Shown here: positions 3,001 through 57,246 of the stretch, one piece after another
Layout: each line of letters starts with the position of its first letter
Numbering within the stretch: position 1 is the first letter of the stretch
NCBI GenBank assembly: GCA_051362555.1
Contig: CM120640.1
Location: 61,916,788 to 61,980,787 of the forward strand
DNA: 64,000 nt
Reading direction: 5' to 3'
From: Lingula anatina
Taxonomy: Eukaryota > Animalia > Brachiopoda
The notes under the pieces: generated by a model
The model's database searches: none
Told to the model about the DNA's origin: nothing
The model's input: only the letters and a program-made list of their open reading frames with translations
Program-made: the position numbers and the translations under genes

Positions 3001-6000
3001 CATAGTTACTCTTGAACTTGAATAGGAAGTCATATACTGGCAATCTTACTGTGACCTTGAAATTGACCTTTGACCTACTTTTCACCATGAACTGAACTTT
3101 GCAAATTTTGCTTCCCTTTTATCTCTAAAACTGGCAGAGATAGGTCCATAGTTACTATTGAACTTGAATAGGAAGTCATATACTGGCAATCTAAGTGTGA
3201 CCTTGAAATTGACCTTTGACCTACTTTTCACCATGAACTGAACTTTGCAAATTTTGCTTCCCCTATATCTCCAAAACTGGCAGAGATAGGTCCATAGTTA
3301 CTCTTGAACTTGAATAGGAAGTCATATACTGGCAATCTTACTGTGACCTTGAAATTGACCTTTGACCTACTTTTCACCATGAACTGAATTTTGCAAATTT
3401 TGCTTCCCTTTTATCTCTAAAACTGGCAGAGATAGGTCCATAGTTACTATTGAACTTGAATAGGAAGTCATATACTGGCAATCTAAGTGTGACCTTGAAA
3501 TTGACCTTTGACCCACTTTTTATCATGAACTGAACTCTGCTAATTCCTTTCTCTTTTAACTCCAAACCTGGCAGAGATAGGTCCATAGTTACTATTGAAC
3601 TTGAATAGGAAGTCATATACTGGCAATCTAAATGTGACCTTAAAATTGACCTTTGACCTACTTTTCACCATGAACTGAACTTTGCAAATTTTGCTTCCCT
3701 TATATCTCCAAAACTGGCAGAGATAGGTCCATAGTTACTATTGAACTTGAATAGGAAGTCATATACCGGCAATTTACTGTGACCTTGAAAATGACCTTTC
3801 ACCTACCTTACGATGAACTTAAATTTGATTGTACCATTTTTAGTTTCATATATTTTTTGCATATATTGAAAATTCTTGTTGATTGCATGTTTACAGCTTG
3901 TCAAGCACAAGACTGGTGGCTGTGTCCCTTATTTTGTGTATGTGGGGGTCTATACGAATGCGCTTGCTCCAGCTGGTGGTACAATATTCGGAGGCGGTAT
4001 CGCCTCTCTGATCCTCTAGTTGAATTCATAATCATATTGTTGTGAATGCATATTTTTTATGCAAGACCAGTAAGCACATTCATGTTAGTTGATCAATGGA
4101 TAATTGTGGAATTGTAAGTTACATGCTATTTTTTAAAACAAACTATATATAACAGATATGGTCCTGGCCAGAGGATCATGCACTCATACCCGCCCACAAG
4201 GCATCCACCCAGGCAAGACCAACATTACCAAGGACCCTCCGGTGGTGGTGGTGGTGGAAGTGATATGACGCAAAGACCATCCAACCCACCCCAGGGGAAT
4301 GAAAGCACTGGGGGCGGTGGTAGCAAGGGAGGAGGCACTGGAACAGAGGGAGATAAGTCAAAGAGACCAACAACCCCAGGAAGTGGACCGGCATCAGTCC
4401 GTGATCTTATCCACACAGCCATTGAAAAAAGTTTAGCACAAGACCTTACTGTGAAGGGACAGAATAACAGTAAGTTTGAAGTTTTATAGCTGTATGATAT
4501 ATCTTGGATGTTTTTTGTTGCATAGTGTGAAAAAGAATACTTAAAACAAATTCCATTCCATTTTTCTTGTAAGTTGTAACAATGTCAAAATTGAAAACGT
4601 GGCACTGTTTCAGGTAGATGGTATGCTTTTGCACATGTGTTCATGTGTATGTTACCACTCAGTTACTGAAATATAATTCTACATTGTGATTTGATTTCAT
4701 TAGATAATAAAAGGTTATTTATATAAATAGGAAATAGTGAAATAATAAAGATATGTGACATTTCTTAGGCTGTATCTCATGAAGTTTCTCACTGTTTAGG
4801 AGGAGTTCCTGGCATGCATTCGAGAGCCAAAGATGACAGTTACTTAATGCCACAGAGACCAGGCAGCCCCAGCATGCCATCAAATGTACAGGACTTGAGG
4901 AAAGACAGGCACAGTGCAGATCACCCAATGCCCCAGCCAATGCGTGAGCACCCTGTCTCCTCCCTGGCAGGATACCATCATCCAGTACCACATGATAGGA
5001 GGGATTATGAGGTTCAAGATTTGTCAAGGAAATCGACAGAGCATCGTATATCACAAGGCTACAAGGGAGACCCTCGTGATTTTGACCCACGCGATCCACG
5101 TAATCTAGAGGTGCCATACATGCAGCCTGAAAACCTGGGTAGAGTGCGTGCCCCACCCCCTGCTCATTCTCATCACACTCCAACTCAGCAGGAGGCTTTA
5201 CAGATGGGGCTGGAACCACATGTGAGGGAGATGCATAGGTTTCAGGATCAGCGGGCCAAATCACCATCTGCCTACCCTTTAGAGAGAGGGATGCCACGTC
5301 CACCATACCCCACTTCTAGTTCCTCCTTTAATGCACCAAGGCCATCCCATCCATCTCCACTACCTCAAGTGCGTGGAAGCATACCACCACCTCCACCACT
5401 CATCAACACAAAGTCACCCAAACTAAGCCCCAGAAATGAAAAGGCTTCCCCTTTGGGTATGCCACCCCCTGCTGGCTCCATAACCCAGGGGACCCCCCTA
5501 AACCCTCCTCACAGCTCAGCTGGTGGGAGGTATGAGGGAGGAGGGCGTTATGAAGGTTTGCTTCAAACCACCACCTCCCACGGTGCCACACGCCCTGAAG
5601 GATCCATTACCCAGGGAACCCCTTTAGGTTCTGACCCCCCAGGTGGACGGCCCTCGGTCAGCTACGAGTCCTCTGTCCCCAGGATGCCTCAGATGATCCC
5701 TTATGAGGCTCTCCATGGGCACTTGCGGCCTCCTATGATGTTCCCTGGGGGGATGGACTATGCGAGAGCAGCTGGTCTACAGGGGATGTACCCTCCTCCA
5801 GTGCCAGGGTTCCCAGGGCCAGGACACCTCCAGGAGTACATGGGGACCCGGGGTCGCCTCCTGGCTGACTTTGTGACAGCACAGCAGATGCATGCAGCAG
5901 AAGTCCAGAGACGGGGACCAGGCCAGGAGAAGGAGGCCAGTTTGTCACCGAGAAATAGAGAACAAGCACAGGGCAACTACCCAGGCAGGGGTAAGAAGCA

Positions 6001-9000
6001 AAAGAGAGTATACATTGTTGAATGATTAAATGTTTGTTAGTTATCAAATTAACAATTGTTTGACTTAGGACATCCTTGTAGTCACAGTCGTTTATTCACA
6101 GGGGTAAGATAAGAACCTACACAAATTTATTTTTTATCACAATATAATTATTTTCTAGCTCAAGCAGAATGCATCCAGTCTGGTGCATATGGTATCCCTC
6201 TCCAGACTCCCCAGGGTATTATGTATGCGCCATACCCAGGGCAGGTGCCCCCCTCCTCCATCAGTGACCAGAGACCCAGGACTACCTCACCATCACAGCA
6301 GATGAGCTCTCTGTCCCCCAGGGGCAATGGTCAGAGTGGGAGTGGGTCTTGGTCCAGTGGGCAGCCACGACTTCCTGTGTCCAGTACCTCTGGGGGCAGT
6401 AACCCTGGGGCCAGGCCCACAGAGTACCCTAGGTCAGTTGTTATGATGTATGAGTCGGTGCATTTGAATGAAAGAGCTTGACAGTTTATTATTCTGGTAA
6501 AGACTTGTCACCTAGAGCACTGATAGCTTTATACTGAAAAACAGAATTGCATCTGGTGGAACATTCTATAATGTTATCGTAAGGACTTTATAACCAAGTT
6601 GCTGATAATTTGCTATGGAATTGTAAAATTGTGTTTGCATTGTTGTTATAACATGCTGCTCTCAATTAATAACAAAGACTTGTCTGTCAACATTTTGATA
6701 AAAATATTTGTGAAGTGAATGTACCATAATTGCAAGAAACATAATTTTCTTGGTGTGAGCAGGTTTCCCTCTGGGTCTCCCCAGCAAAGGCAGAATGTAA
6801 TAAAACGTGGTGGTGGCGGCAGCATACTTATGGGTACCAGTGGCAAGGGTGACCCAGGGCCAGAGAGACAAGGAGGACAGCATCCAAGGGGAACACCTTC
6901 ACCTAGGTGAGATTGATAAACTCATAGAAAATGCCTTACAAAACAAATTGCCCTTTGAAATGCAATTTATATTTCTACCCTATTCCCCTGCCCACTCCCA
7001 ATAAGTCCAGGATCTACATGTGACTGTTTCACAATTTGGTACATTGTTAGAAATAGCAAACTGTCATAATAGATCATTTTAGGATGTTGATTGAACCTGT
7101 ACTGTAATTTTGCCTAGGTGGTTGATATATTCAAGGTTATGTATTTGTATGTTTTAGATTCAGTGGGGAGAGTGGGGGCTCATTCCAAGTGTTAGTGGAT
7201 GCAGCAGCCAATGCTCAGAGTTTGTCTGTTGCCCACGAGAGGAGTCGAGAAGAATCCAGGTCACCACGCCTCATGGCAGAGATGAGAATGAGAGAGAACA
7301 GAGACAGGGAACGTGCTAGATATGAATCCGAGGTTGAATCCTACCGCATGATGAGAGAAAGGTATGATTCTGAGAGAACAAGAACTGACTCAGAGAGAAC
7401 CAGGACAGATTCAGAAACCTCTCAGATAGAGCAAGATAGAGAAAGGGAGAGAAGACAGTTGATGGAGCAGGCCAGAGCAATGCCCATGCCTAGATTTGGC
7501 CCCACAGTGTCCACAGAGCAGGCAAGGTACGAGGCAGCATTGGCTGCAGAAAGAGCACGTCAGATGCATGCACAGGCAGAGCACCAAGCCCGTATGATAG
7601 AAATGGAAAGGGCACGTTATATTGAAGAGCAGCGCTCTCGTATGGCACAAGTTCAGGCAGCTGCAGCCACATCTGAGGCCTCACAGGCTGTTGACATGCG
7701 CCCAGGAAGTAATAGTCGTAGCATGGAAAATTTACGGGGCGAGACCAGGAGGCAGGAAGCTGATCAGGCTAGCAGTCACTCTCAGCCTCTTGGTCGCCCT
7801 TCCAGTAGTCAAGATATTGTGTCTACTTCAAATCAACCCAGCAGTGAACAGCCATCGTATGGGAATCAGAGATCTTCAAGACCAACTGAACAGTCAAATG
7901 GGGATGTCCCTTTAGAAGATAGAGAGAATAGGGAGACAGCAGTGCAAGATGGATTGGAATTATTGTCAGGTTCATTTGAAAAAGATGGAGCAAAAAAGCA
8001 CATGTCAAAAGAAGAGGTGCAACAGGAATTGAAAGGAAAGGGTCAAACTACAATGACAGCAGCCAGTTTAATTGATGCCATTATAACGCATCAGATTAAT
8101 AATACAGTTACTGGGCCGCCTCCCTCTGAGCCCACATCAACACAGCCCCCTCTGTTATCAAAGCCATTAATTCAGCAACAACAACAGCCTCAACCCCAAC
8201 AGCAGCACCAGCAGCAGCAACAACAACCACATATACAGCAACCCCCACAGTTACCCAGACCACGCACTCTAACCCCAATATTTAATCGCCAGAGTCCAGA
8301 TACTTCTCAGCAGGTTGAACACAGGTCTCCACCATACAAGCCACACAAGGCTGCTCTCAGTCGATATGAAGCAGATGCCAGGGGAGAAAACTCCTCTGAG
8401 GCTGTTGAGAGTAGAACCATGATGGTAAGCCGGTCTTTGGAGCACCCATCAAACAACAGCCCCATCTCTGACATCAGTGACATGTCATCACGTTCATCCT
8501 CCTCCAACCACCCATCAGGGTCGTCACAGGGAGGCCCTTCTTCTAAGACTATTACACTCGGTGAGCACATTGATGCAATAATAATTCATGATTATCAGAA
8601 AAAGATAGCAGCCATTGGTTCTGGGGGATTTCTTCATAAGATGGGCAGTCTCCCCACTGAAAAAAGTGCAGCAGAGAGTAGCACTACTGCTGCCATCAAA
8701 CAGTTACTGAACAGCGATAGCTCTAGCAGTGTGGCATCCACATCACCCACTGGGTCTCCACGCAGTAAGCCAGCAGATTCCTCACCAGCTAGTGCTGGAG
8801 TGACCAGGGCCACAGAGGGGGAGGAAAACAACCCAGTGCAACTGCAGCTTCTGCAACAACAGCAACTTCAGCAGCAGTTACAGCAGTACCAACAGCTTCA
8901 TCAACAGCAGCAACAGCAACAACAACATCAGGCCTCGCCACCAGCAGCTCAGCAGCAGCATTCACCCATCAGCAGCCAGCCAAAGGTTTCTACTGGGTCA

Positions 9001-11772
9001 ACTGGTTATGTGCCTCAGTACAAGCCAAAGAGAAATTTTCAGGTACTAACATATATATTTATATATAGCTTATAAGTGCTAGAAGTTGAATTGTGCTCTA
9101 TATGCTGTGTTGTTATTGTTTTATACGTTTTTTTTTCAGGTTGTATGTAACAACCCTTAGTAATTTGAATTTGCACATATAATAAAATTTCTCAAGTTTT
9201 TTTTTTTTTTTTTTTTTTTTTTTGAGAAATACTTGGTGTCATTTTCTCTCCTAAAGTACCAAATTTTTACCCTGAGACAAACTTGACACACTGGTTTGAA
9301 GATGAATTTAATAAATTCTAGATTCCTCACTTACCTTGTATATTTAATTTATAGCAAAGAGTAGCTACAGAGGCTATGGCAGCCCCAGAGTCCTCAGACC
9401 AACCTGTACAAGCTGAAGAACAGAGTGCCAGACCAGCACAACCTACTCCCCCTGCACCTGATGATGGGGTGTCCCAGTCAGACCAGAAACAACTGGATTC
9501 CTACAGAATGGAGTCCATTTCACCAGCAGGTAAGAAGGTTATTGGTCCTTTCTAACGGTCTTGTCTGTTTGAAAGGTAAGTTTGCCATTTTGTTCTGTAG
9601 AACATTTGTTATGATAAGATTAGTATACTTAGATAGACATTATCTTCATTACAATCACAGTTATGATATCAAATGTGTGATATAAAAGGAAGGATTTGAC
9701 TTAGTAAGATATGTTGTACTGTAAAAACTGAAAGCAAAAACACCAACTTGAACATCTTTTACCTCAGGTTCTATGAACAGTGACAACAGTGATGTAGGAA
9801 GTGGTAAACCAGGGTCTCCACGCTCTCCACGAGGTGGCAGCACCTCTGCAATAGCTGCACATCACCAGGCAATCTCCAATCTCCTTCAGAGACCAGGTAA
9901 AATGTTGGATCTTCATTTTCACACTTTGTATTTATACAACAGATTAGGTTTAGATATAAAGTTTTGAAGTTATAATAGACCTTAACTGCATTTAAACTAA
10001 AAAGTTGAAAAAGTTCTATATCAATCATTAAAATAATCACTGAATAACTTTCAGGTTTTCCAGCAGACAGCAGCCGTAACCCTTCATCAGGTGGGTCCAA
10101 TGAAGTGAGCAGTTCAGCCAACAGAAACTTGTCCTTCTACAACATCATGTCCCCTTTGGATTATGTCCGCAGCAAAATAGCAGAGGTAATGAGAAGCGGG
10201 GAGAGTGTGGTACACAGCAACAGATCCTCAGACCAAGCCAGTGCTTCAAGCAGTGAGGTTCCTCATGGATCCAGTCCTCACGTGGGTCAGTCAGGGTATC
10301 CACAGGAAGGCACAGGAGCAGGAGACAACCCACAGCTGTCCATGCTGCCTGGCAGTAGAAATGGCGTGAGTGGAGGGGATGGTAGAGATGGCAGAGGTGG
10401 TAGTCATCCCAATACCCCCAGCTCCTCATTTAATTCAGGCCACCGGTCACCTCACCCTCACTGGCCAGGGTCACAACAACAACAACAACAACAACAGCAA
10501 CAGCAGAATCAGCCTCCACCCCAGCCACAGGCTGATGGCCATAACAAGCCATCCCCAGGGGTTCTAATGGGATCTTCAGGCAGGTGGAGCCCCAGGACAC
10601 ACCCGTACCCGCCCAGGCCCAGTTCAGCTCCCAGGGGCAGCATTATTCAGTCACCAATGGACAGGGTAAATAGTGGACAAGCTGCCCCCAGTGAGCCCAG
10701 ACCAGCCTTTGCTGACTCCTCTCGAGGGAATCATGAAGGAAGGCCCATTTTAGACATACGCAAAAGAGCTATGGAAGATTATGGGGAATCCAAGCAAGTC
10801 TCACCAAGACCTGCCAAGAAAAGATATTCACCAGCATTTTATGGTCAAGGGCCAGTCAGCTCTGATGACCCACAGTCCAACTTTCACATGAGACAGAGCC
10901 CCAGGTCCATGTCCCCTTCAAGCTCAGAAAATCAGGCTCCTTCAAATAGTTATGAGAGATCACAAGTTTCTTCTGGAAGTAGGGCTAGAGATAGCAAATC
11001 TGGAGATGGAGAAATTGATCAGAGTTCCTCCAGTCACGTAAGGGAAGCACATGTTAGTGGTTCTTCAGAAAAGTCCAGTGCTATGCCAGTGGAGAGCAGT
11101 AGCTCTCGCCGCCAGGATACTGGTGTAGGAAGCAGTGGTGGTGTGGGAGAGGTGGTGACCTCTCAAGATTCAGAGCGAGGTTCAAATCAACCTGGGGATG
11201 ATGGAGTCAGTACCGGGTCTCAGTCAGTGGAGGGTAGCAGTGCCATGAGCAGCAGCATATCCCATCAGAAGCATATCTCCAGTGATGCTGAAGACTCTGG
11301 CCTTGTCATTGATGAGGGAAATGATGCAGACAGTTCTGCCAATGCTCAGCCAGTGAGTCCTGCCCATGCTAAGATCTCTACCACCTCAGGGCAAAGGGAT
11401 AGAGACGCAGACCAAAGTACAGCCCCAGACACTGGTGCCAGCTCCTCTGAAGTCATAGGAAGCTCTTCATTACCTCATTCATCAGGTGGTGCCAATGTGC
11501 CCACCTCTGCTCAAGATGGCGGCACACTCGGAATCTCCTCTTCGTCATCTGCACTGCCATTTGGCGCCAGTTGTTATCCTTTCTCCTCACAGCCTCTGCG
11601 TACTGCAGGAGGATCCCCAGGGAATTCTCAGTTCCCCAGCAGCAGTGTTAGTACTCGTGGCAACTCGCCTACTATTGGGAGTAATGGTAGTAATAATGGG
11701 GTTGGGGACAGCACCACAGGATCTGTTCCAGCCATGTCATCACAGTATGAGACTATGTCTGATGAAGACTGA
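55..11772 (+). CDS. NCOR1: Nuclear receptor corepressor NCoR/SMRT (SMRTER-like); 5' part lies outside the window
   Basis: In-frame GT-AG exons ~55-193, 469-588, 804-1000, 1346-1541, 1745-2117, 4156-4469, 4800-5990, 6159-6432, 6763-6906, 7158-9042, 9355-9529, 9768-9896, 10055-11772. Motifs: SANT2 ([15 protein letters not shown]...[12 protein letters not shown]), ESVAST, two [25 protein letters not shown], CoRNR-like [14 protein letters not shown] and [15 protein letters not shown], and C-terminal [10 protein letters not shown] (LSD/SPOC-binding type). Confidence 0.95.
2184..4020 (+). mobile_element. Non-autonomous Helentron-associated element (HINE/pearl-like), copy A, in NCoR intron
   Basis: 5' subTIR ATTGTACCACCAGC (2184-2197) with adjacent inverted repeat CGCTGGCGGTAC; 9-bp GGCTCC(TGC/GCC) microsatellite; internal satellite; 3' subTIR GCTGGTGGTACAAT (3972-3985); hairpin GAGGCG-GTAT-CGCCTC; CTAGT end. 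Nearly colinear with 28099-31293. Confidence 0.88.
2829..3806. repeat. 146-bp tandem satellite, about 7 units
   Basis: AAGTCATATA recurs at 2881, 3027, 3173, 3319, 3465, 3610, 3756 (period 146, one 145). Confidence 0.95.
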
Positions 11773-33485: not shown

Positions 33486-36400
33486 CTAGTTTAAGCTGCC
33501 TCTGCAGTTTGGTGCACCACAGAAACATGGGATCTTCTGGTCTTCCAGTGGAAACTTGTAATCATAGGTGATCTCTTCATTCATGTCAATGTCTCTCTTG
33601 GAATAGATAACAATCTTCTTGCTTGTATCCACTGTGATAATTTTAGCATAGCAATTGGGCTGAAATGAAAACATATTCCTCAGTAAATCAGTTTGCAGTT
33701 TTTATGGTTTGGATTTTAAGTTGGGATATTAAGATATTAAGTAAAAGTAAACTGGTAAACAATGGTCCAAGTGTTAACCTATTAGCAATTTAATTGACAA
33801 AATTAGATTTTGTAATCAACACAAGTTTATTTCAAGAAAAATACATAATAAGCAGCTGTACTTACATTACAACTGTGATTAATAAATCTGGCCAGATTGC
33901 CAGTTTTGGTTGCATCTATAATGGTCTCATGATCAACTCGAAATAGGTATGAGCTTCCTATACCCATTTCTTCATATTTCTTCTCTCGTAAATCAGCAAC
34001 TGATTGCCGGATGGCATGACCCACATATTCTATGACCATCTCATCAGCTGCAATAGGCTCCAGGGCAAACAGACCCCAATCATGAATTGTGCTCTTGGAA
34101 AATCTCAAGTTCTTGATACGGAACTGCAATAAAGGGGGAATACTTTGATTCGATTGCAATAATGGTTGTTTAGATTATAATTAAAAATTATATGTTTTTT
34201 TAATTCAATATAATATTAAATATTTTTATATTTATCCTAAATGATTGACAAAGGTGCAGTAGTATACAGAAAATGAACAAGACTAATATAACTATTCAGT
34301 AACAGTTAAATATCAATCTCAGAAACACAAACAAGAAATTTATAGATTTCAAGGCAGTATATCTTTTAAACACTGACTGACAAGAGGTTTACCTTCAATT
34401 GGTTAAATTTCAGCAAATCCCCTATCTCCAGATCTCCCATTGTGGTTAGTAGTCTCCTGTTCTCTGACCTGGCCTCCCTAGACAGCTGAACTTGCTTCTT
34501 CACTTTATCAAGGGTCAAAGACCCACCATCCTGTAGTATACCATAAATACAATTTCTCATGATATAAAATTATGTAAGTTAATTAATTCAACATTATCTA
34601 ATGCTATAGAATAACTAACACCATTTTTTTACAAGAGGGACCTTTCAATAAAAACGTCCGCTACCGGCCAAATTTCGAACACCATGTTTGTGTTTGTCCT
34701 TTACTTATACTTGCACTTGGGTCAATGAGGAGACATTAATACAATTTCTCAATACTGCCAATTGTAGCATTTCAAATTTAAAAAATCTAATTAGTACACA
34801 CTGAAGGAACTTATTAATCATCAACAGTGTCTGATATTGTCAATAGCTTGCTCAAACAAAGATAAAAACTCTTGCTAGCAATATTTTCACATACAAAGGT
34901 CAATGTAGATATAGCCATGACTCCCTTTATATAAAATAAAAGAACTTACAGGAGCAGCTGGCTGACTGGAAGCACCACGAGCAGCACGTAGGAATGCTTT
35001 CTTTTCTTTCATTGTCATCTTATAGTAACCTTCTGTTCTTGCAGAGCCTGAAGTGAAATGATAACACTGGTAAAACTGTCATTACCATAGTTTAGTACAG
35101 ATAATGAAGCATACACTCTCAAACACTAAATGCACCTTTCCAAAAGTGCAAGAACTGCAGGGTGGCAGATATCATGAAGCAAACTGGTGGACATAAAAAG
35201 TAGCTGAAACCATGCACCCTCCTCCACACATCTATATAAAAACATACAAACTTGTTGCATTTTGTGTTAAATGTTTTTTTTTTTTTTTTCAAAGGATGAT
35301 ATGAACTTTCAGAGCAATCAATTGTTTGACACACAACAAAAATTCTGTTTAAATATATATTTATATACATGTACTGTACCTGTCTCGTGTATCTTTGGCA
35401 TGTCATCATCTGTTTTCCTCTTCTTCTTAGGCACCACAGGGTCTGGGATATTGGTCAAAGGGTGTTCAACCCAATGAGTGTAGTTCAACCAGAAGGCAAT
35501 CTGTGGGTTGTCAATCCCAAGCATTTCTTCATAACTCCTTTTTAAATAATTAACATCTTCTGCATCAATACCTTTCCTGAATATGTCATACATAAGCATT
35601 CTTTCATCCATCTGGGCTCGTGGCTTGAACTTTGGTTTTGGTTTTGGGGGACTTGGCGGAGGCAAAAGATTGGCAAGTTCTCGATTCCTGCGAGATTTCA
35701 CTATATCTGTTATATCCCTAAGTTTCTGAGCTCCTTTCTTTTCTGGCGCAGACTCCTTCAACATTTCGCCTATAACAGACTTATTTTCTGTCACTGTCAG
35801 CTGTTCATTTTCTTTTGTTTTATCTTTATTTCTTACTTTTTTAACTTTTGGTTTAGTCTTTGGATGGAGACAGTAGTTGTGCTCTATAAACATACTCAGC
35901 GGGATAGTTGGTTCCCCATCACTCTCTTCCGAGGAGGAGGAGGAGGGCTTAGATTCCTCTGGTACCTCAGACTCTGTAGGTTTTGCAAAATAATCATGTT
36001 CTGAGATAATCTGCTGCTGTGTCTCATGCTCCTTTTGTTTCTGAGACTCCCTTTCTTTGACTGCCATCTCAACTAAAATGTCAAAGGCACCCATGTGGTC
36101 CTCCTCTTCCCCAGCCTCTTTCTCTTTCTTCCCCTCTTCATCCTTACTGGCATCCTCTGCTTTATCTTCAGAAACTTTTTCTTGGGATTTTTGGTCTACT
36201 GTCTTAGTGTGTGATGGCAGTTTTATTTCTGTGCTTTCTTCTCCTTCTTCCTCTTTTTCGTTTGCTTTGAATTCCCTACAAAAGCATCCAGTCATATTAC
36301 ACTTCATTTGAATAAAAAATGTTATACCTTTGACTTAATACCTAGATGAGCAAGACAGGTGAAACTTTTGTTATAATTTATCTTCAACCTCACAGTTGGA

Positions 36401-39400
36401 TACTTGAAACCTTCATTTTTTCAATCTGATGATTCAAGTTTTTACTTACTCTTCTTTTCCTACCAAGTCTTTCTCTTCTTCTATATCTTCTTTATCTTGT
36501 CTGAAATTATCAAAGAAAGCAGGTACAGCTTTAAAACTTATTTGATGCAAGTCCAGGTCCCTAAAATAATTTACTTCTACATTCAAATGGATGAAAAGTA
36601 CAAATAATCCAAGGTCACATGTATGGATTACAATGTGGATAAGGCATTATATTGTAATACTTTGAGTTTCCACTTTCAGTAAACATGAATGGTTGGCAAA
36701 TCAGTTTGTTTTCAGTACTTTAATTTATCTTACTTTTCTTTTCCTTCATCCACAGACTTAGCCTCCTCTTTGTCTCCCTCTTCCTCTACATCCACAACTG
36801 CTGATTCTTCATCTTCTTCCTCCTCCTCTGCCTCATCATCTGACTCTGCGCCCTCACTCTCCTCACTTTCCTCCTCCTCCTCATCTTCCTCCTCTTCTTC
36901 ATCACTGCTGCTGCTAGCATCCTCTTCATCTACAAAGCAAGAAGTGAAATGCAGCATTTACTGTTACTAATCTTTTGATAAATGTCAATAAAATCATCAA
37001 AAATTAACACTACTGAAGTTGAAACTTCTATAAAACATTAAATTACCTTCCGATTCAGCTTTTGACTCAGCATCAGATTTATCTCCTTCACTCTCACTAT
37101 CATCTGCTGGCCTTTTGATCCTACTTTTGGCTTTAGATGAGTCTGATTGGGTAGAATCAGCATCTATTGGAAAATTATATTACATATTATGTTACAGACA
37201 TTCAAATATTGCTTTTACATCAATTTAAATAATTTTTAATTGGGAAGTTTCACATTTATATTGCATTCATTCCAAAAGAATGTATTTTTTGGTTAAGAAA
37301 AACACTGCATTTCAAAGATTAAATGTTCTTGTTGCAACGTAAATTTCAACTAATATACATAGATATCATCAGTTCTTTCCCGCCTTCCTTGTTTGATCTT
37401 TTTCAAGGAGTGTCTAAGCCCCTACCGGAATCATAGTCTGCTTTCCTGCTGTCCTGTGTCTCATCATCTTCAGCTTCAACAGAGGGTGGTCTAAACTTCC
37501 GCTGGAAATAACAGAGGATGATAAGGTTTTAACTTTTTAACTTTTAACCTATTTTTTACTGCAGGAGGAGCTAGAAGACCTCTGGTAGAGATTTACCTTT
37601 ATTTATTTTTAACAATATTTTCCACTTGACTGTGAGGTCTGTACATTCACTTACCCTAAATGAGGGCATCTTTGGAATTCCAGCTCTTAGTCCCAATAGC
37701 CCACCCATTCCGAATCCCCCAGGTCCACCACTAAAGCTAGCACCAAAGCTGCCTTCCTGCCAGCGATTTGAGGAATCAAAAAGAGAGGACAGTGCTGCCT
37801 CTTGCTTCCCTCCAGATGAAGCAGTTGTCTGCTGTGTGGATGTGCTTGGTTTTTCGGTACCTGGGATGGTTTTCTGTACTTGAAGACTGGACTTCTGAAA
37901 TATAAAAAAAATTATATTGTCACACATATTGCCACAAAAGATATCCATCCTACCAAGAAATAATTACGAAATGTTTAAACAAGAGTAAATCTTAGATCTC
38001 AGCAGGCGTCCATAAAATATGCCAGATGTCATGATAAGTTTGCATACCTTTAACTCCGATTCTTCTCTGTCCCACCAACATTCAAAATGTTTAAATGCAG
38101 AATTTTCCACCATTTTCCTTCCGAGATCCTTTTTCATGATCTGTTTCAGTTCAGTAATGATTTTTTCTAATCCCTCATGAAATATTTCATCTCTTGGATC
38201 TGTTATTTCCCCCTCTAGGGGACCTTCCATACAGTTCATGTTGCCAATGTTTTGCCCCATGTTAAAATTGGACGGAATCTGGTTTAGATGTTGGTTATAC
38301 CCAGTAGGGCTTAGCATGCCACTTTGTGCATTATTCATGTTAAAGTTACCATTCATCATGACATTCATGTCTGAAGCAAAACCAGGTCCCATGCCAGGAT
38401 TCCAGTTTCCCATCATAGGGGGTATCATGGGATTGCCCAAGTTGGGTGGTTGGAAGTTCATCATGGAGTTTGGCATCATGGGGTTGAAGGCAGACATAGG
38501 TCCTGGAGGGGGAACCGTAAGGTTGATGCCCATATTGCTCATATTTGGAGGCGGGACTGACAGATCTGGGACAACAATTGGATTGACTTCTATCTTTTCC
38601 TCTCCACTGCTAATTGAAGACACACTCATCCTGTCTTCATTGTCACTGCTGTCCAAATCCATATCTTCCCCTTTACTGTCCTGTGTCTCCAGCACAGACG
38701 GACCTGGAGGAATTGTGGGTGGAAGCTCTGGGGCCTTAGAAATTGTCTGTTCTGATTCTTTCCTCTTACGATGTTCATATGAATCAATATGTTTAGTCCT
38801 GTCCTCTCTATTACTACTCTGAGAAGAGTCTGAATATGCTGCCCTGTCACTGCGGGAAGGCACAGGAAGAGGGGGTGGAGTATGTGAACGAGGGGTCTCA
38901 TCTGGGGGAGGAGGATGTTCCCCTCCTGATGAGTCATCTGGGCTACCAAAGGAAGCTCCCAAGTCTTTTGACTGTTTTAGCAGCATTTCAATTCTGGATT
39001 CCAGACTTAATGATTTGGGTTTCTCTGGTTCTGGAGATTTCTTCCTATGCCTGCTACTATGCTTTTCCTCACGATGTGTATGTCTGTCATGATAATCCTT
39101 GGGGGGCTGCTGTTGCTGCTGTTGCTGAGATCTATTGAACTCCCTGTTGTATTCATTAAAACCTCCAAAATTTTGATTTTGCATAGGAGCCTGCCCACTT
39201 TGCATATCAAACTGCTGTTGTGGTGGAGGCATATCATAGGCAAAATTCTGCCCACCCATATTCATGTTATACATGTTCATATTGTTTACATTGTGCGAAG
39301 CAGGCGGAAAACGATCAAACCCTTCCTGGTAGCCCATCATAGGTGTCTGCTGTGACAAGGGGGTGAATCCCAAATCAGAAGAAGTTTCTGAGAAGCCTAA

Positions 39401-41595
39401 TTCCCCTTGGCCAACAGAGTAACCACCACTTTGGGAGAAGTCTGAGCGTCCTGTGCTATAGCCAACGTCTGAGTGGCTTCCTGCTGGTGTTGTGCCATAT
39501 GAATTGTTAGAGGGTGTAAAATCTGCCCCCTTGCCTGTGGAATTATTATTGAAGCTTTTTGATGATGATGATGATTCATCACGATATCCCTTGTCATTCC
39601 TTGAGTGATTGCCTGAATGTAGAGGGATTTCTGGTGTGGCAGGTCTTGGTTCAATCCTGGGTTTATCTGTTGTCAAGTCCTCAATCAGCTTCTGCCTTTC
39701 TGTACCTGTCAAGGTAAAAGAATACTTGAAAGTTTTGTTATTAAAGACTGGTAGCAGCAGTGAAAGTTTTACACCACTAACCTGATAGCAGAATGCAACC
39801 TTACACCATAAAGCAACATAATATCTTTAATGAATGTCAATATGCATTAAATGATACTTGATATGAATAAGCACTGTCATTTGTAGGAGTGAAAATATTT
39901 TTATTGACTTACACCTTTTAACTGTACAGAAAAACATTGATTTCATTTATGATTGATTAAATGTTGTTTTTTTTCCTTGATGCAACAAATACTTATATGA
40001 TACTTATAGATATATTTGATTAATATTGAAATGAGACATCTGTATTCCACTACTCTATATCAATTAACAGGGACAAATACCTCTGAAAACTTCAAACAAA
40101 CAAACAATGTGGAAGGAAGATGGGATATTCACAAGCAATCAAATCACTGGGGATTTGTTCACTGAATGATAAAAATACACACCCATGGTATCTACAAACA
40201 CATTCATGATATTTCCCATCTTTGATGTTTGGTCCAGCCTGCTGGCACATATTCTAGCTGCCTTGGTAGAGGTGAACATGACCTATAAGAAAACAACTAA
40301 ATTAAATACAAACTGAAATAGTGTGACTGTGTCACCTTTGTTTGTCACAATATTCCTCCCACCAATTTGTTATAGTAGACAGATGTTGTGTTTTATGCCA
40401 AAGACACCAAGTTTTCATCTAATAGAAAGCAAAGCTAAAGTCTACATACCCTTTTTTCTTTTTATCAAAAGGGATGCCACTGTTTTTTTTTTATTGTTGT
40501 CTAATATCACATTAATGTCCATTATAAAGTAGAGTCACTGAATGCATACAAAAAAAGAAAATATTGCATCTAAATCCTGCACGACAAATTATCTGTATAC
40601 CTTAGCAATTCCCAGGTGCTTTCTGGTCTTTGGGTGGTAGTAGATCTTACACTCTTCAACTACCCCAAATGACCGCACCATGCCATCTAAGAATCTGTTG
40701 TCAATGTTGTCATTTAGGTTTGTAAATGTCACCTCTTTTGGTAGTGGTATACCAACATAGTATTCATCATACTGGAAAGATAAACAAAATGTGCCATTCT
40801 GATCCATAAGAATTAAAATTTCATTTGGTTAAAAAAAATGATAATCATATCATATGAACTTACAATATAGAAAATCCAACTTCAAAATCAACCATAAGTC
40901 CATAACTACCCTACGTACAAACCTTAAACTGTGGCACAACAAGATCTGCTTGGTTTATTTTTGTCCACAGTCTATTCAGCCTAGGCCTTGGGTCTCTTAC
41001 AAACACTGGTGTTGGATCCTAAAAATAATTGTGCCACAAACTGTCAGAGAATGAAGTATCAAAGGGGTTAGAAACAGTAATATTTCAAGAACAGCTCTGC
41101 AAAGGTAAAACTGAAAAAAGACTGCATGGTCTTTAAATGCTCCTAAAATATACAAATTCAAAATTTATATAAGTTGTGGCCATTTCTTCTTTCTTTTACA
41201 TGTAATTTCTTATCTTAATATTTTGACTGTGTTATTTATTAGTTCACTATACACAATTTTGTCTAGAAAGAACATCCTTGTCATATTTTGTCCACTCTCT
41301 GACCTGGGTATATATTCTTACCCCAGGAATTACACCTTCAAATCTATATAATTTCTGTTGCCCCTTGTGCAACACTGGGTCTACAAGTAATTTGTAGTTC
41401 CTCCTTTTTCTTTCTTGAGAACCCTCGCCAGGTCTGCTCAGCCCATTGATATCTAAAACAGAAATAAAAGTAAAAATAATTATCAGGGCATTATATAGTA
41501 CATCAAACCGGTTGGATATGGCAACGAAAACACACAAATGCTTCAAGTTCTTGGTGATGCTCACTTGGTGCTGAGTGTTTCCTCATGTGTTCCAT
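33486..41595 (-). CDS. SETD1: Histone H3K4 methyltransferase SETD1 (SETD1A/B-like)
   Basis: 16 in-frame exons from ATG 41595 ([10 protein letters not shown]). [12 protein letters not shown] ([11 protein letters not shown]...[15 protein letters not shown]), [30 protein letters not shown] motif [12 protein letters not shown] domain [23 protein letters not shown]...[15 protein letters not shown], post-[16 protein letters not shown]. Confidence 0.97.
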
Positions 41596-45500: not shown

Positions 45501-48500
45501 TTGTAAAATATATGTGTACTTAACAATACTGGTACAATGTGAAAAGAAATTGAAGAAATTTGCTCATCTTAAGGCTCATCTTGACAAGAGCCCTGTCATT
45601 TTCATAGAGATTTGATGATTTGTGTTGTAGTGTTCAATTAATGTAGATGTATGATTTTATAACCCTCCATTTGGGACACTTTTCAGCATATCTTAATGTG
45701 GTTTTTTAGGTTGCCCAAAGTATACCAGCACCTCCTGACTTCATGGATTGGCTGAGGCAGAACCACGCAGTTGCTGTTGACAGTTTGCCAGAAACTAAAA
45801 AGTTTAAAGGAATCCACATAAGTCGATTTCTGCTGAATCCAGCTGAAGCAGATGAGGAACTGCTGGAAAAGTTATTGGATGTATGTGTCTAGAGGTTGTC
45901 TTCAAGTTTGACTGCACTGATATTTTAGTTGTCTCTTAACTCCATGTGTGCTTTGATATAATGTGTATACTATATTAAAAAGAATTTACATGGTAACAGT
46001 GATAATAGTATATATCTATCATTTGTTTTGCTAAAAGTAAATAAAAGGTTTGTGTGTTTGATGAGAAAAGTTGTATCTGCTGTCACTGTGGTTGTAGTTT
46101 TAACATGATTAACTTGTTAGATGTTTTGCTTCTTTTTATAGATAATGACAGAACAGCATGTCACCGAGAAAGAAAATAATAGCAGTGTAGATGGTGAGAA
46201 TTCAACTTTGCACAAGGATGATCAAGGTGCAACTGCAGACCAGGAGCTCACCTTCTTTGTGGATACTACAGCTGACAAGAAAACTGCTGCAGAAATGCAG
46301 GTATTAAACAGTGTAATGAAATTTGTGGCATTGAAGAGAAATCTATGAGCAAAAACAGAAATGACTAATTTTTTTTATGCAGACTTAGCAAATAATTGAT
46401 GGCTGCACAGATATATGTTGGGATTTAAGATTGTATGGAGTTAAAAAATTACACACCTTTCTACCTGTAAAAATATGAGAATATACCACCCAGTCTGAAC
46501 AAGATGTGATTTAGATTTCACATATTATATAAGATTTGTTTAAAAACAAATATTGATGACTACCAACACAAGATCTTCCAATTATTAGAAATTTGAATAT
46601 TATTATGGTTTGTCTGAAAATCGTTTGATATAAAAATTTAAGTATAAAGTGTCTCACTTTCACTTTGTTATTGTGGTAAGAAATGAGTAAATGATGTAAT
46701 AGTTCATTTTACTAATTTGTAAATTCAGCTGTATTCTAATTTTAACAGAGGGAGTTTCAATCTTCAAATGAAGAGACTGAAGGATTGGATAAAGATGAAA
46801 GTGATTTGGAAGTGATGGAGGTAGATATTAACATTTATTAGTATTTGATAAGTATAAAGTGTCTCACTTTCAGTTTGTTATTATGGTAAGAAATTAGTAG
46901 ATGTAATAATTCATTTTACTAATTTGTAAATTCAGCTGTATTCTAATTTTAACAGAGGCAATTTCAAACTTTAAACGAAGAGACTGAAGGATTGGATAAA
47001 GATGAGAGTGATTTGGAAGTAATGGAGGTAGATATTAACAGTGTGATCCTAAACATGGATTCTGAGTCTGAAGAGGATGTGGTGTTGGTAAGTGTCACTT
47101 TTTGTTATTTGGACAGTTTAAAGCTCTTTCATGGAGGTAATAGATCCGCACTATAAACATAATTAAGAATTCGATACAAGATATTTTGGCTGGAGAAATG
47201 CTGGAGAAAAGTTTTATTTCAAAATAAATGCAGTTTTTTTTTATTATGCATAAGACACAAATAATTCTATGTTTCACTTTAAAACACTTTTGGTTTTCTT
47301 CTCATTTATAAGGTGTGGTGTATAATTTTTAATTTTTGTAGTTATCCCGAAACGGTAGTGAATTTGGAGAAGAAGAAGATGTGGAGTCATTAACCACAAA
47401 AGAAACTGTGAAAGATTTTATTGACACTGGCTTGGAAACTGTACCAGACTCTACCTCGGACATTGAACATACTGCTACTAGACATGTTGCTTCACTCCCA
47501 GATTTATCACAGCATTTGAAAAAGATTGAACATTTACAAGAAAGAGAAGAATCGCCAGAAATTGAGATTCAAGCAGAGATTAAAAGAAATCCAGAAAAAG
47601 CATTGGAGTTATCTCCTAGTCCTATAAAAAGACGGTTAAGACCACATAGTGCCATGAAAGGAACAAGAAAGTCTGAACGTCCCAAAAGAGAAATGACTAA
47701 AGCATTGGTCAGTATGTCTGGTGTGGAAGGTGCTTCTGGCTTACAGGTGTATGATTTTACATCAGATGTGGAGTTGTCACCAGCAAAGCTGAGAAAAACT
47801 GATACCAGTGCTATAACCAGATCATTGCCAGATAGTAAAAATGAAGTATCTAAACTTGACAGAGAGTCCATTTCAAAAAGTGTAACTGCAGTTAGAACTC
47901 TAAGATCAAGAACTATATCTGAATGCTCTGCTGCCAGTTCCAAGGCTGATAATATGGATATCACTATATTGGATTATAGAAATGATTTGCCAAAGCGGCA
48001 TTCCAAAAGAACGAGAACCCCAGTGAAGCCGAAAGAAAAATCAAATGATGAGGTCTCAAAAATGAAAGTGAGTAGAACTCATGAAAACGTGCATTTATCA
48101 TTTAAAAAGACGATATAAATGATTCACTTTGTCAGATTTCATCTTGTGAAATAAGAATAAAATATTTAAAGCACAGTTTCTCTTTAAGTGACAAGAAATT
48201 GTTATCTATAGCCTTCTACGTACTATTAAGTTTGTATTTTATACTGGAGGGCATTTTTAAAGTGGACAGTTTATTCAGTATAGTAATATTTTGGTATTTC
48301 AGGGTTCCAAAGACGTTATTCCTGTAATGGAACAAGTGGATAAATCCGATACTGGACAGCCAAGGTATTTTTTTTTGTCAAAGTGTAGTATCTTTATAAT
48401 GTTTAGGTAGATTTCTGTAACTTTTCTTTTTAACAAGATTTAAACACATTTTATGAGCTCAGGCAACAGTTTTGGCTTGTCAGTTAACTATTTTTCGTAG

Positions 48501-52340: not shown

Positions 52341-55300
52341 AATGGATCGTTGGAAGGGAAGGGTAGCTCTGGTGACTGGTGCTTCAGTCGGTATAGGCGC
52401 TGCTATTGTCAGAAAACTTGTCCAGCATGGAATGAAGGTGGTGGGGTGTGCGAGAGGCGTTGAGAAAATACAGGTACAATGATCAACTGTACCCTAGTCA
52501 AGTACCGGTAGTAGTTTTTATTAGCGCTTGTGTAATTTAAGGTTACCATGTGCTTAATTTAAAGTTATCTTGTGCGGGGTAGGCCCTTGTAGTCAACGCA
52601 GAAATGTAATGAACCACTACTAGTATGCAGGGACTGTACCCCAGATTGCTGTCCGTTATTTTATCTTGCAGACACATAGGGCATGGGATCGATAACACAG
52701 TTTACCCAGCTACTTAACGCTGACCTTTAAAATGTATTTGTACTAAGCAATATGTGGATCACTACATAAAAATATATACTTTAATTCTACTTGACTGAAA
52801 ATATAGGCTGCGTCAACTCATCTTATATCTACTACTTGTAGAAAACTGCATCATTTGTGATGACGTTTTATTCAGCATGGATGTAATTTTCACATATCCC
52901 TATCTTTAAAACAGGCATCTAAAAAGTCCATTGTGCATTTTGCTATATCAAAATAATTACATTGTAGAATGGTAAGAAATAATTCACTAATGGGCTCTGG
53001 AGCTGCAATGCCCAGTATACATGTAATAAATGGATCTTAGTGGAGCATAACAGGGGCATATCATCAGGAAATGGAATACATCTTTGACCAAACACATGTT
53101 GCACACCATGCACAATTTTCTTTTCTACCAGTATATTTTAGGGTTCATGTGTCTCCTCCTTTCTATTGGATTCTTTTATTGTGCCAGTAACTACCAGTGA
53201 AGCCTACATTTGTGAGAATGACAGTAATGTAATATTTAATCAGGCATTCAGTATTCACATGTAAAATTAACTGAATTGTTGCTTACTTATTTTTCTTTTA
53301 TGCAGGCCAAACTGAAGAAAAAGACAGCAGTTCAAATGAAATTATTCATTTAAATTTAAATGCACCTCCTTTTACTTTAGGCCCTGGCAGATGAGCTGAA
53401 AGATATGGATGGGACTTTGCTACCAATCAAATGTGATCTCTCCAATGAAGAGGAAATACTGTCCATGTTCAAAACAATCAAACAGACCTGGGGTGGTGTT
53501 GATGTGTGCATTAATAATGCTGGTTTGGCACTCAATGCACCATTACTCAGTGGAGCAACAGAGCAGTGGAAAACTATGTTAGATGTAATACTGATTTATA
53601 ATAGAAGCTAGGTTGCTAAGTCTTTTGAACAAAAAGGTTGTAAGCATAAAATACCTAGTTACAGCGGAATTCAATAGTGTTTTCAAAACTTATCATTTTC
53701 CATTCTTTCAAATACCTGTTGCAGTATTTTATTGTGTCTTTAGTTTTGTTTTTTACATATATACTTGCATCATTGATATTTAGTTTTATTTAAACAAGGT
53801 CAACATAATGGGTCTGTGCATCTGTAGCCGTGAAGCATTCAAATCAATGAGAGAAAGAAAGGTTGATGATGGACATATAATACTTATAAGCAGGTAGGAG
53901 ATCATGCAGCTCACCGAGATTACATGTGTGTACCATAATCATTTTTTCAAAGCATATTTTTTCATACTATGGTAGGAGATAAGGGTACTCCATACTAGAG
54001 GCCAGTTTAATGATGAAATAATTTCCATGCAAAAATCCTCGCTCACAGTAGAAAAAACTGCTATAAATTATCCAGGGACACACTGATATCTGGGAATATC
54101 TAGTGAAAAATCAATCTGTGGTCCTGGTAGAGGGTAAGGTAGGGGTGCAAGAGATCACATAGGACAGTATCATACACATTTTAATGGAATTTTAACATAT
54201 GGATCGAGGGGGTTACTTAATCCTCTTGTTTTTTAAGCAAAACACTTTATTCATGATTACATGTAATTTCATTACTGAAGAAAATTATGTTTACGCCAAA
54301 TATTTCAGTATGTCGGGACATCGTGTTATACCATCAGCAGCCATCCATTTCTATTCAGCCACCAAGTATGCTGTAACAGGCATTCTTGAAGGGCTGAGGA
54401 ATGAAGTCCGAGCTCTGAAGACCAATATAAGAATCAGTGTAAGTGATTGAATATGATTGATTGGGAAGGGAGGACAGGTGGCAAGATTTTTAGAAATCCA
54501 AACATTGACTTTGAAATTAACAATTACATTTCAGTATGGGAGCATATAGGTTAGTTCCTAACACTCCTCAGCTTCACTTTTATGCAGCCACAAAGTTTGC
54601 AGTACGTGGTATACTGGAGGGGATGAGAAATGAGTGCAGGGCACTGGAGTCTAATATCAGGGTGTCTGTAAGTTTATATGCTTTAAAAGAAAAAAAATGC
54701 CATATGCAATCACAGAAAAAGATATAATGATTATATTTTCAAAAAATTGCCAAAAATGCAGTGCTAGAGTTAGGAGTTTCAAGTGAAAACACAGATGAAT
54801 AATTCTTCTTTCAAACTTCAGAATTCTTTTTTCTTGCATGCTGTTTTCATACTTTCCCTCTCTCAATAAACATTTGAAGATCTTCCAAAAAAGAAATTTT
54901 CCCAATCATCTGAAGTATACTCACTTTATTTGCTGTCATTGATTATCTTACCCTATGTATTTACTTGGCCATGCAGGAACTAATATTTTGACTTTGAATT
55001 ACACAGGAGTTGGAAATCCAGTCAAGATTCTATAAGAAGACCAACTCAGCTGATTCAAAATGTTCTCATGTCTTCTCATGTGATTTAACAATGCCCCATG
55101 TGGATTAATTGTTAATCAACTGGATAAAAACTGACAGTATGGGAGAAGTCTCAATCAAGAGACTAAAAAATCCCAATTTCAGTTTCATGCATTCCACTGT
55201 TGTTTTTTGGATTGAAGGTCACAGGGCTATATCACATGGCAGTGGGTTAAATTTGTTGAATATAAAGGAATGAATTTATGAAATCCAGCTTTTTGTTCTA

Positions 55301-56321
55301 ATGCATCAAATGACTGTGACATAGATTATGATGGGAAAGAAGGCCACAAGGAAATGGAATTTTAATAATCATTTAATTTCTTCAAATATATAGGCAGTCA
55401 GCCCAGGTGTAGTGGAAACAGAATTTGCATACAGGCTTCATGAAGGGCAAGAGGAAAAGGCGAAAGCCATATATTCCAAGGCTCCTGTAAGATTTTTTAG
55501 TCCTAGCCATGAATTTTGAGTTCCTCAAATAATAAAAAGTCATAAGTTCAAGTTGATCGATGTTTTGCAGATTTTGCAACAGTATGTTTTATTGTGAAGT
55601 ACTGAATACTTAAATTAAAATTTAAGTATTGACACTGTAATGTTTAAAGGGATGACAACTCTGCATTTTGGTGGAGTGCCATAAAACATTTTCTTGGGGT
55701 TAATTTTCACATTTTCCGATGGTTAATGAATCTGTACTGACACTTAAAGTTAGTCAAGTGGGTTTTTTAAAAAGTGTTTGGAGGTCCTCATAGTCTGATG
55801 GCAAGCACAGATTACACAATAATTTCAATAAGTGACATTTTTGTGGTGAAATGGAGCTTATTATTATTTCTGTGTTGTTTACAAAGTATCATTTGTGAAA
55901 TATGAAGAGTTGTTATCCCTTCAAGATGAATGTGAAGTAATGCTTAACTTTATGTAAACTGTAAATACAGTGCTTCTCAACATCTTATTGTGCACATCAA
56001 CTTCAGGTTCTTCAGGGAGAAGATATAGCAGATGCTGTGATCTACGCATTGTCTGCACCACCACATGTTCAGGTGTGAAATAGTTTTGTTATTTATAACA
56101 ACAGTCTCTAAGTTATCCAATTTGTTCTCAAGGGATTCTTTCCATTTTGAATTCATAGTGATTTTTCCTCAAATGTTTTTTGCTTTGTGTGCATGCACCT
56201 GTGGTTCTCCCAGTACATTCAGATCAGATTTTGGCAAGATATTTTTTTTTGTTTAGTAACATTAAATTTCTTTCCTCAGGTCCACGACATTCTCCTACGT
56301 CCAACATCACAGGTTTCTTAG
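52341..56321 (+). CDS. DHRS11: Dehydrogenase/reductase SDR family member 11-like, with alternative exon 4a/4b
   Basis: Exons 52341-52473, 53381-53584, 53799-53893, 4a 54309-54438 or 4b 54535-54667, 55394-55486, 56007-56072, 56280-56321. MDRWKGRVALVTGASVGIG, DVCINNAG, DDGHIILISS, YxATK, SPGVVETEF, SAPPHVQVHDILLRP. Confidence 0.93.
55648..55920. mobile_element. Degenerate Kolobok-like MITE in a DHRS11 intron
   Basis: TTAA|AGGGATGACAACTCT ... AGAGTTGTTATCCCT|TCAA; related to 57247-57584 in opposite orientation. Confidence 0.65.
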
Positions 56322-56614: not shown

Positions 56615-56734
56615 TGAAAACTTGGGACTGCGCTTCAGTAACAATTTCAATTAACATTTCTTTAGAGTGCCAATTGAAAACTTGGGACTGTGCCTCAATA
56701 ACAATTTCAATTAACATTTCTTTAGAGTGCCAAT
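56615..56734. repeat. 60-bp tandem duplication downstream of the DHRS11 stop
   Basis: TGAAAACTTGGGACTG...TTTAGAGTGCCAAT twice, period 60. Confidence 0.9.
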
Positions 56735-57246
56735 TACCATTCATTACCAGCTGGGAGGCTGAACAACTTAGTCTTATTCTTTTTAGATTTAAATCACTAA
56801 AAAGGCATACTTTCTGATTAATTTGAATAAACTACCTCATTTCAAATAGTGTTATTAAGTCATGTATAGATGTTAAATGAGCACACAAACAATACGTGGT
56901 GCCTTGATATGAAACCAGACAACTTTTGTGTTTTTAATCTCCAAATACTAAAAAAAATCAATTAGGCTGAGAATAAGAACTTATTATATCTCATATTTTA
57001 TATTAATTATTATTGAACATCACAATAATAAACGAGTTGCCTATTGACGTATGTCATGCTATGACATTTATTTAAAAAATATCAATTTTTACGAGATTAC
57101 AAATTGTATCGTAGTATTTGGTTCCATTGCCTCACTTTCAAAAATTAGAACAGGCGTTCTAAAACCAGAAGATGAAGTTCAAAAATTTTATATTGGCCGA
57201 GTTCACTCTTGAATAAGAATGTCCTCGCAGCATTATCTGCAATTAA

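Follow-up and report, generated by a model that had tools for sequence, protein, structure and literature searches.

The brachiopod locus described here raises the question of whether one gene encodes two enzymes. Within a window of 64,000 nucleotides from Lingula anatina (the whole stretch of DNA analysed), a seven-exon short-chain dehydrogenase (SDR) gene on the + strand (52342-56321) has two candidates for exon 4, the exon that continues the active site. The preliminary description of this DNA assigned the gene to DHRS11, and the assignment is borne out by relatives, Pfam and the structure match. Exon 2 matches L. anatina DHRS11 at 99%, the predicted proteins match Pfam adh_short (E 4e-49 with exon 4a and 9e-48 with exon 4b), and the best solved relative in both sequence and fold is human DHRS11 bound to NADP (1XG5; Foldseek TM 0.96, rmsd 0.8, for a model of the 4b form), to which the 4b form is 56% identical. 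By its closest named relatives and its closest structure, the gene is Lingula DHRS11. Both isoforms have the classical SDR hallmarks, namely the glycine-rich cofactor motif, the NNAG motif and, in the model, a Rossmann fold. Both also have the full catalytic tetrad, with N114, S144 and K164 invariant in 98 aligned rows and Y160 present in 95 of the 96 other homologues as well.

The exons would divide the protein into a cofactor side and a substrate side, with all constitutive junctions backed by RNA reads. Exon 1 (coding part 52342-52473; Pfam adh_short, RNA joint to exon 2) provides the start codon, the glycine-rich cofactor motif and Arg38 after strand 2. Exon 2 (53381-53584; RNA joints, Pfam and homologues) provides the NNAG motif, and exon 3 (53799-53893; RNA joints) the catalytic Asn114. 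The last two bases of exon 3 begin the codon of catalytic Ser144, which is split at the exon 3/exon 4 junction as first described. Exon 4a (54309-54438, 130 nt) and exon 4b (54535-54667, 133 nt) are separated by a 96-nt GT..AG intron (54439-54534), and each encodes the loop after Ser144, the YxxxK helix and half of the next strand. Exon 5 (55394-55486; RNA joints) encodes the substrate-binding lid region, followed by exon 6 (56007-56072; RNA joints) and exon 7 (56280-56321; RNA joints), which ends at the stop codon. The coordinates and splice sites reported for the paralogous pair are correct: both exons are preceded by TTTCAG and followed by GTAAGT, begin in phase 2 (finishing the Ser144 codon) and end in phase 0. 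The two are adjacent, homologous, alike in phase, similar in length and bounded by canonical splice sites, as tandem exons are. Translation through exons 1-2-3-4a-5-6-7 is open and gives 253 residues, and through 1-2-3-4b-5-6-7 it is open and gives 254. With 4a as tblastn query, 4b is recovered (E 8e-16) and the 64-kb window yields no further exon-4 copy.

The pair is already present in RefSeq in the form of automatic isoform models that share a scaffold: XP_013385782.1 (isoform X2, 253 aa, 4a-type) and XP_013385773.1 (isoform X1, 254 aa, 4b-type). RefSeq variant models of this sort usually rest on transcript alignments. Each model differs from the corresponding window translation solely at residue 53, for which both alleles are present in one RNA run (X4), and the 4b and 4a peptides are each identical in the window and in RefSeq. 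A further DHRS11 model of Lingula, XP_013399400.1 (P0004), sits on a short scaffold; it is of the 4a type only, lies one residue from isoform X2 and is probably an allelic copy. The earlier remark that no prior account of such a DHRS11 exon pair was known holds for the literature searched, where none was found; the two isoforms themselves were already database models.

Other features of the window lie around the gene. Two near-identical 60-nt tandem units occur at 56620-56740, shortly 3' of the DHRS11 stop codon, and reads of two RNA runs (X7 and X8) contain a 184-nt step back at 56579-56396. The intronic segments 54086-54136 and 55782-55814 attract hundreds of loose-ended reads from other loci on both strands and are pieces of dispersed repeats. 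Long open frames of 258-649 codons elsewhere in the window (4769-6025, 7126-9075, 10048-11772 and 47342-48118 on the + strand; 35318-36334 and 37964-39826 on the - strand) have no Pfam match and are read as large exons of other genes.

The two exon-4 peptides share 26 of 43 aligned residues. Codon by codon, 9 of the 43 pairs match exactly, 17 carry synonymous and 17 non-synonymous differences; changes occupy 25 of 31 synonymous sites and 27 of 98 non-synonymous sites (Fisher p 3.7e-7). The preliminary description, which noted that both exons are open, keep YxxxK and show many synonymous differences, was right on each count. Because 4a is constrained anyway, a null model was simulated in which 4a accepts synonymous changes only and 4b is fully neutral (seven branch lengths, 20,000 draws each, a simple substitution model without indels). 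The probability of reaching pS >= 0.81 together with pN <= 0.27 is at most 0.00055 across branch lengths, and at most 0.00005 when the absence of a stop and retention of YxxxK are required jointly. Since the neutral-4b null is rejected, protein-level selection has, by this paralogue comparison, acted on 4b for a large part of its past, and the exon does not resemble a dead copy.

In an exon-4 peptide tree (48 rows, 43 columns), 4a and 4b are sisters (96/94), with a branch length of 0 for 4a and a long branch of 0.72 for 4b. From this we infer that exon 4 was duplicated on the line to Lingula and that nearly all of the change occurred in 4b, so that 4a appears ancestral-like and 4b appears to be the derived copy. 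This polarity, and the duplications of neighbouring parts of the gene in other animals described below, were overlooked in the preliminary description. A grouping of Lingula 4b with alternative exons of vertebrates is weakly rejected (p-AU 0.034, 25 rows). Some clam exons share the one-residue insertion of 4b. The conservation check proposed earlier gave no counterpart of 4b in relatives, among which no other brachiopod genome was covered: a weak search with the 4b peptide alone as protein query, yielding two candidates, gave no significant match in other organisms, no 4b-type form is present among the other proteins of a 289-protein set, and exon 4 is doubled in none of 26 animal DHRS11 loci from metagenomes (none of them Lingula-like, the best at 59%). 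Four of the animal contigs from metagenomes (L006, L007, L017 and L021) carry head-to-tail whole-gene DHRS11 copies.

The changes in 4b concentrate beside the active site. Placed on an AlphaFold model of the 4b form, exon 4 runs from the loop behind Ser144 through helix 155-180, which carries Y160 and K164, to the middle of the following strand. The mean pLDDT of the model is 95.6, a confidence that is hardly specific to 4b, as the input alignment is mostly of 4a-like rows. Of the 18 positions that differ between 4a and 4b, ten fall in a 12-residue loop (residues 146-157), in agreement with the divergence between catalytic Ser and Tyr noted at first, and from HFY onward only 8 of 31 residues differ. 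In this loop 4b gains one residue and replaces SGH with GAY, where the Gly is present in 95 of 96 and the His in all 96 other aligned homologues. The His at position Ser+4 is found in 246 of 247 motif-matching proteins (from the set of 289, which is redundant and vertebrate-heavy), the sole exception being 4b; one of the metagenomic loci (L012) has Gln at this position. In human DHRS11, Thr163 and Val200 are said to govern specificity, a point not counted as evidence here. Because of where the 4b changes sit, a difference in substrate between the two forms is plausible. Swaps of segments around the pocket change the substrate preference of bacterial SDRs (PMC10827548), and by analogy the exon-4 loop of DHRS11 may have the same effect.

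Thus far, Lingula DHRS11 is probably best understood as a gene with a tandem exon 4 in which 4a serves the everyday enzyme, while 4b is rare, likely restricted to a tissue or stage, and expected from the predictions to yield a complete reductase whose pocket is remodelled. In the proposed scheme, a tandem duplication of exon 4 on the line leading to Lingula would have left 4a with the ancestral sequence and allowed 4b to alter the loop after the catalytic Ser. Exons 1-3, common to both forms, would supply the NADP(H)-binding half, and the 4b enzyme would prefer carbonyl substrates other than those of the 4a enzyme.

An alternative, which we consider unlikely, is that 4b is translated and selected for another property, altering oligomer contacts, stability or turnover or providing a damped subunit. 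Exon 4 spans helix 155-180, which forms the usual four-helix dimer interface of SDRs and in which 4b has Arg for Thr, making an effect on assembly a real rival; moreover, the 4b residues R168, M174 and C178 are found in only 2, 1 and 0 of 96 homologues, respectively, and replacing a His that is almost invariant might reduce activity. Against this alternative stand the distribution of the changes, with the 12-residue loop differing at 10 positions compared to 8 of the 31 residues from HFY onward, and the retention of all catalytic residues in 4b.

Whether 4b is used was addressed in eight of nine raw-read RNA runs under the Lingula species label (X1-X8, three studies; reads placed at 90% likeness from 6-26% of each run, about 6% of X1-X6 and about 25% of X7-X8), in which a joint is listed only from three reads at two starts. 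In every one of the eight runs, which come from samples of unspecified type, exon 4a is joined to exons 3 and 5 and is the dominant form. Joints of exon 3 to 4a are supported by 105, 128, 126, 11, 4, 9, 3 and 5 reads in X1-X8 (391 in total) and joints of 4a to exon 5 by 63, 57, 75, 7, 15, 7, 3 and 5 reads (232 in total). At the threshold of at least three reads, no joint of exon 3 to 4b, 4b to exon 5, 4a to 4b or exon 3 to exon 5 is listed in the eight runs. In the 6-26% of each run covered, the junction-count check proposed in the preliminary description goes against 4b, with no 4b joint compared to the 391 reads joining exon 3 to 4a. Depth over 4b is zero in runs X1, X3, X5, X6 and X7. In run X2 it is 1.0 and 0.52, spread over 54535-54650 with just three bases upstream, a shape from which we infer that about one read was spliced at the acceptor of 4b. 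The 4b depth in X4 (4.0) and X8 (1.3) is not taken as inclusion, because the flanking introns are covered too, as in unspliced RNA. By depth shape, 4b has a share of about 1/360 in the three deepest runs, with an upper bound of about 1.5%. In the RNA examined, 4b is a strongly minor form. The intron that follows 4b (54668-55393) has sense-strand reads in X3, X4, X5 and X6, exceeding introns 1 and 5 in X4; these few reads suggest slower splicing around the alternative exons.

The original proposal that splicing yields two enzymes is thus upheld in part: both isoforms are RefSeq models and 4b has evolved under constraint, but the RNA is nearly all 4a and shows no two-way switch in the eight runs. 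Such scarcity could mean that 4b worked formerly and is now silent or vestigial, with its transcripts and the RefSeq X1 model reflecting splicing noise. This explanation draws on the zero or near-zero use of 4b in eight runs from three studies, on its long branch, along which conserved positions have changed, and on the failure of the searches made to find a 4b orthologue. It is nevertheless quite improbable, as 4b has neither stop nor frameshift and retains consensus splice sites on both sides. The identity of the 4b peptide in the window and in RefSeq, between proteins that differ elsewhere, adds a weak argument (4a is identical too). The null test also rejects neutrality since the duplication, though it is compatible with a recent loss of use.

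The means by which the exons exclude one another was considered from the sequence around them. Inclusion of both 4a and 4b leads to a stop at codon 192, and skipping of both to a stop at codon 150, which confirms the early stops first predicted. Mutual exclusivity is forced by the reading frame, because joint inclusion or joint skipping ends the protein early. Transcripts with both exons or neither would be removed by nonsense-mediated decay (the frame is shifted and the stop precedes further junctions) and not be prevented by steric hindrance. Branch-point-like motifs lie 30 nt (TTGAC) and 18 nt (TTAAC) before the 4b acceptor and thus over 50 nt away from the donor of 4a, compared to a limit of under 50 nt for steric interference given in PMC5740500. 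In this single genome, intron-intron helices are no longer than in shuffled sequence (21, 8 and 27 of 30 shuffles reach them), and the 48 pairs of inverted repeats around the exons are short, AT-rich and not above chance in a shuffle test. Neither steric nor docking-site exclusion is indicated by this single-genome test. That 4b is a poison exon, whose inclusion next to 4a would shift the frame and so reduce expression of the gene by way of nonsense-mediated decay, is highly improbable: the transcript with both exons does stop at codon 192, the 96-nt intron looks spliceable with its branch-point-like motifs more than 50 nt from the donor, and such RNA would be expected to be scarce, as observed, yet an exon read out of frame would not keep a DHRS11 peptide with a synonymous excess, and the 4a-4b joint is not listed in any of the eight runs.

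The favoured reading, a rare 4b form with a remodelled pocket, gains a wider setting from DHRS11 in other animals, where annotated isoform pairs differ in blocks that start at the exon-border positions of Lingula. Exons were read in these animals from protein models and from exon borders common to several loci, including the bird-like L015. Eleven vertebrate pairs were compared. Ten of them, from a paddlefish, a sterlet, six frogs, a lungfish and a stingray (e.g., P0093/P0094, P0100/P0096, P0285/P0271 and P0289/P0119, among others), are identical over residues 1-146 and differ throughout residues 147-255. The eleventh pair, from coelacanth, was based on a truncated model; the RefSeq X1 protein gives the same pattern, as does Xenopus tropicalis. 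A second block of exons 4-7 thus appears to give two 255-aa DHRS11 enzymes in sharks, sturgeons, lungfish, coelacanth and amphibians. Because the alternative exon-4 peptides of vertebrates, nine in number, fall into a single clade (100/99), the duplication of this block would predate the split of sharks from bony fish. For the alternative form of X. tropicalis there is a Logan record as well as an accession of the cDNA type, and its cluster includes a curated NP_ protein. The alternative block is not seen among the amniote or teleost proteins examined. The Pelobates cultripes pair, which has a different N-terminus, was not counted as an exon swap.

In bivalves, the variable part is the counterpart of exon 5. 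Isoform X1 differs from X2/X3 solely in this exon in five oysters, and Mercenaria and Ruditapes have three versions each of the exon-5 (lid) segment (oyster and venerid clam variant models: P0141/P0140, P0241/P0151/P0240, P0226-P0229 and P0149/P0231/P0233). The exon-5 copies of oysters and clams may go back to one duplication or to separate ones, the comparison covering 31 columns and giving an unstarred grouping. The oyster copies are not strictly exclusive, as models from three species hold both in tandem. Abalone isoform sets were rejected as exon swaps, since their members diverge either at the N-terminus or along the whole protein, as paralogues merged into one model would; Ruditapes X4/X5, which differ in several exons, and the Mytilus set were not counted.

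These cases allow the tentative proposal, which we hold with somewhat less than even confidence, that DHRS11 is a repeated hot spot at which duplication on the substrate side yields several enzymes from a single gene. At least three independent events would be involved (in Lingula, exon 4; in oysters and venerid clams, exon 5, with two or three copies; and in jawed vertebrates, the exon 4-7 block, retained from sharks to frogs), with exons 1-3 shared and each form, including the His-to-Tyr 4b form, acting on a different carbonyl class. The larger point is that the same gene has apparently been duplicated in part several times across phyla, at conserved exon borders and always on the substrate side; recurrence in brachiopods, bivalves and jawed vertebrates lifts the Lingula pair above an isolated case. 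The vertebrate pairs point to an additional DHRS11 enzyme in sharks, sturgeons, lungfish and amphibians, a case that Xenopus would allow to be tested directly. If 4b has substrates of its own, the Lingula pair would be a natural swap of a single segment that maps specificity in a DHRS11 enzyme.

Human DHRS11, the best sequence and structure match to the Lingula gene, is an NADPH-dependent 17-beta/3-beta-hydroxysteroid dehydrogenase according to PMC8073704. It differs in that a second type of exon 4 is not seen among the amniote proteins examined, and the substrate in the brachiopod need not be a steroid. Fish provide a different route to diversity: PMC8073704 also describes whole-gene duplication of dhrs11, and in cichlids the gene diversified by whole-gene tandem copies, unlike the exon duplication of Lingula. 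No description of alternative DHRS11 exons was found in the literature searched, which left out most subscription papers, including those on DHRS11 enzymology. DHRS is not mentioned in the main texts of two human surveys (PMC9741552 and PMC5740500), and a search of PMC9696374 for active-site terms gave no match.

According to PMC7434440, which describes the closest parallels, it is rare for a splice choice to alter an enzyme's catalytic core. In COQ-2 of helminths, annelids and molluscs, homologous exons 6a and 6e are used one at a time and remodel the catalytic core, as proposed for 4a and 4b, and one exon is likewise ancestral-like and the other restricted to a lineage. COQ-2 differs in its fold, in the experimental demonstration of a substrate switch and its regulation, and in that each form becomes abundant under the appropriate condition, whereas 4b is rare. 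CYP4F3, cited in PMC7434440, resembles the proposed 4a/4b system in that tissue-specific exon choice changes the substrate of a small-molecule oxidoreductase; it differs as a mammalian P450 with experimental proof. The tandem-exon substitutions of KHK and ACOX1 (PMC9741552) place the swapped region beside the ligand site and keep the catalytic residue in both forms, as in 4a and 4b, and differ in being human genes. The kind of exon choice is already known from COQ-2, CYP4F3, KHK and ACOX1, and the DHRS11 exon pair is a new case of it.
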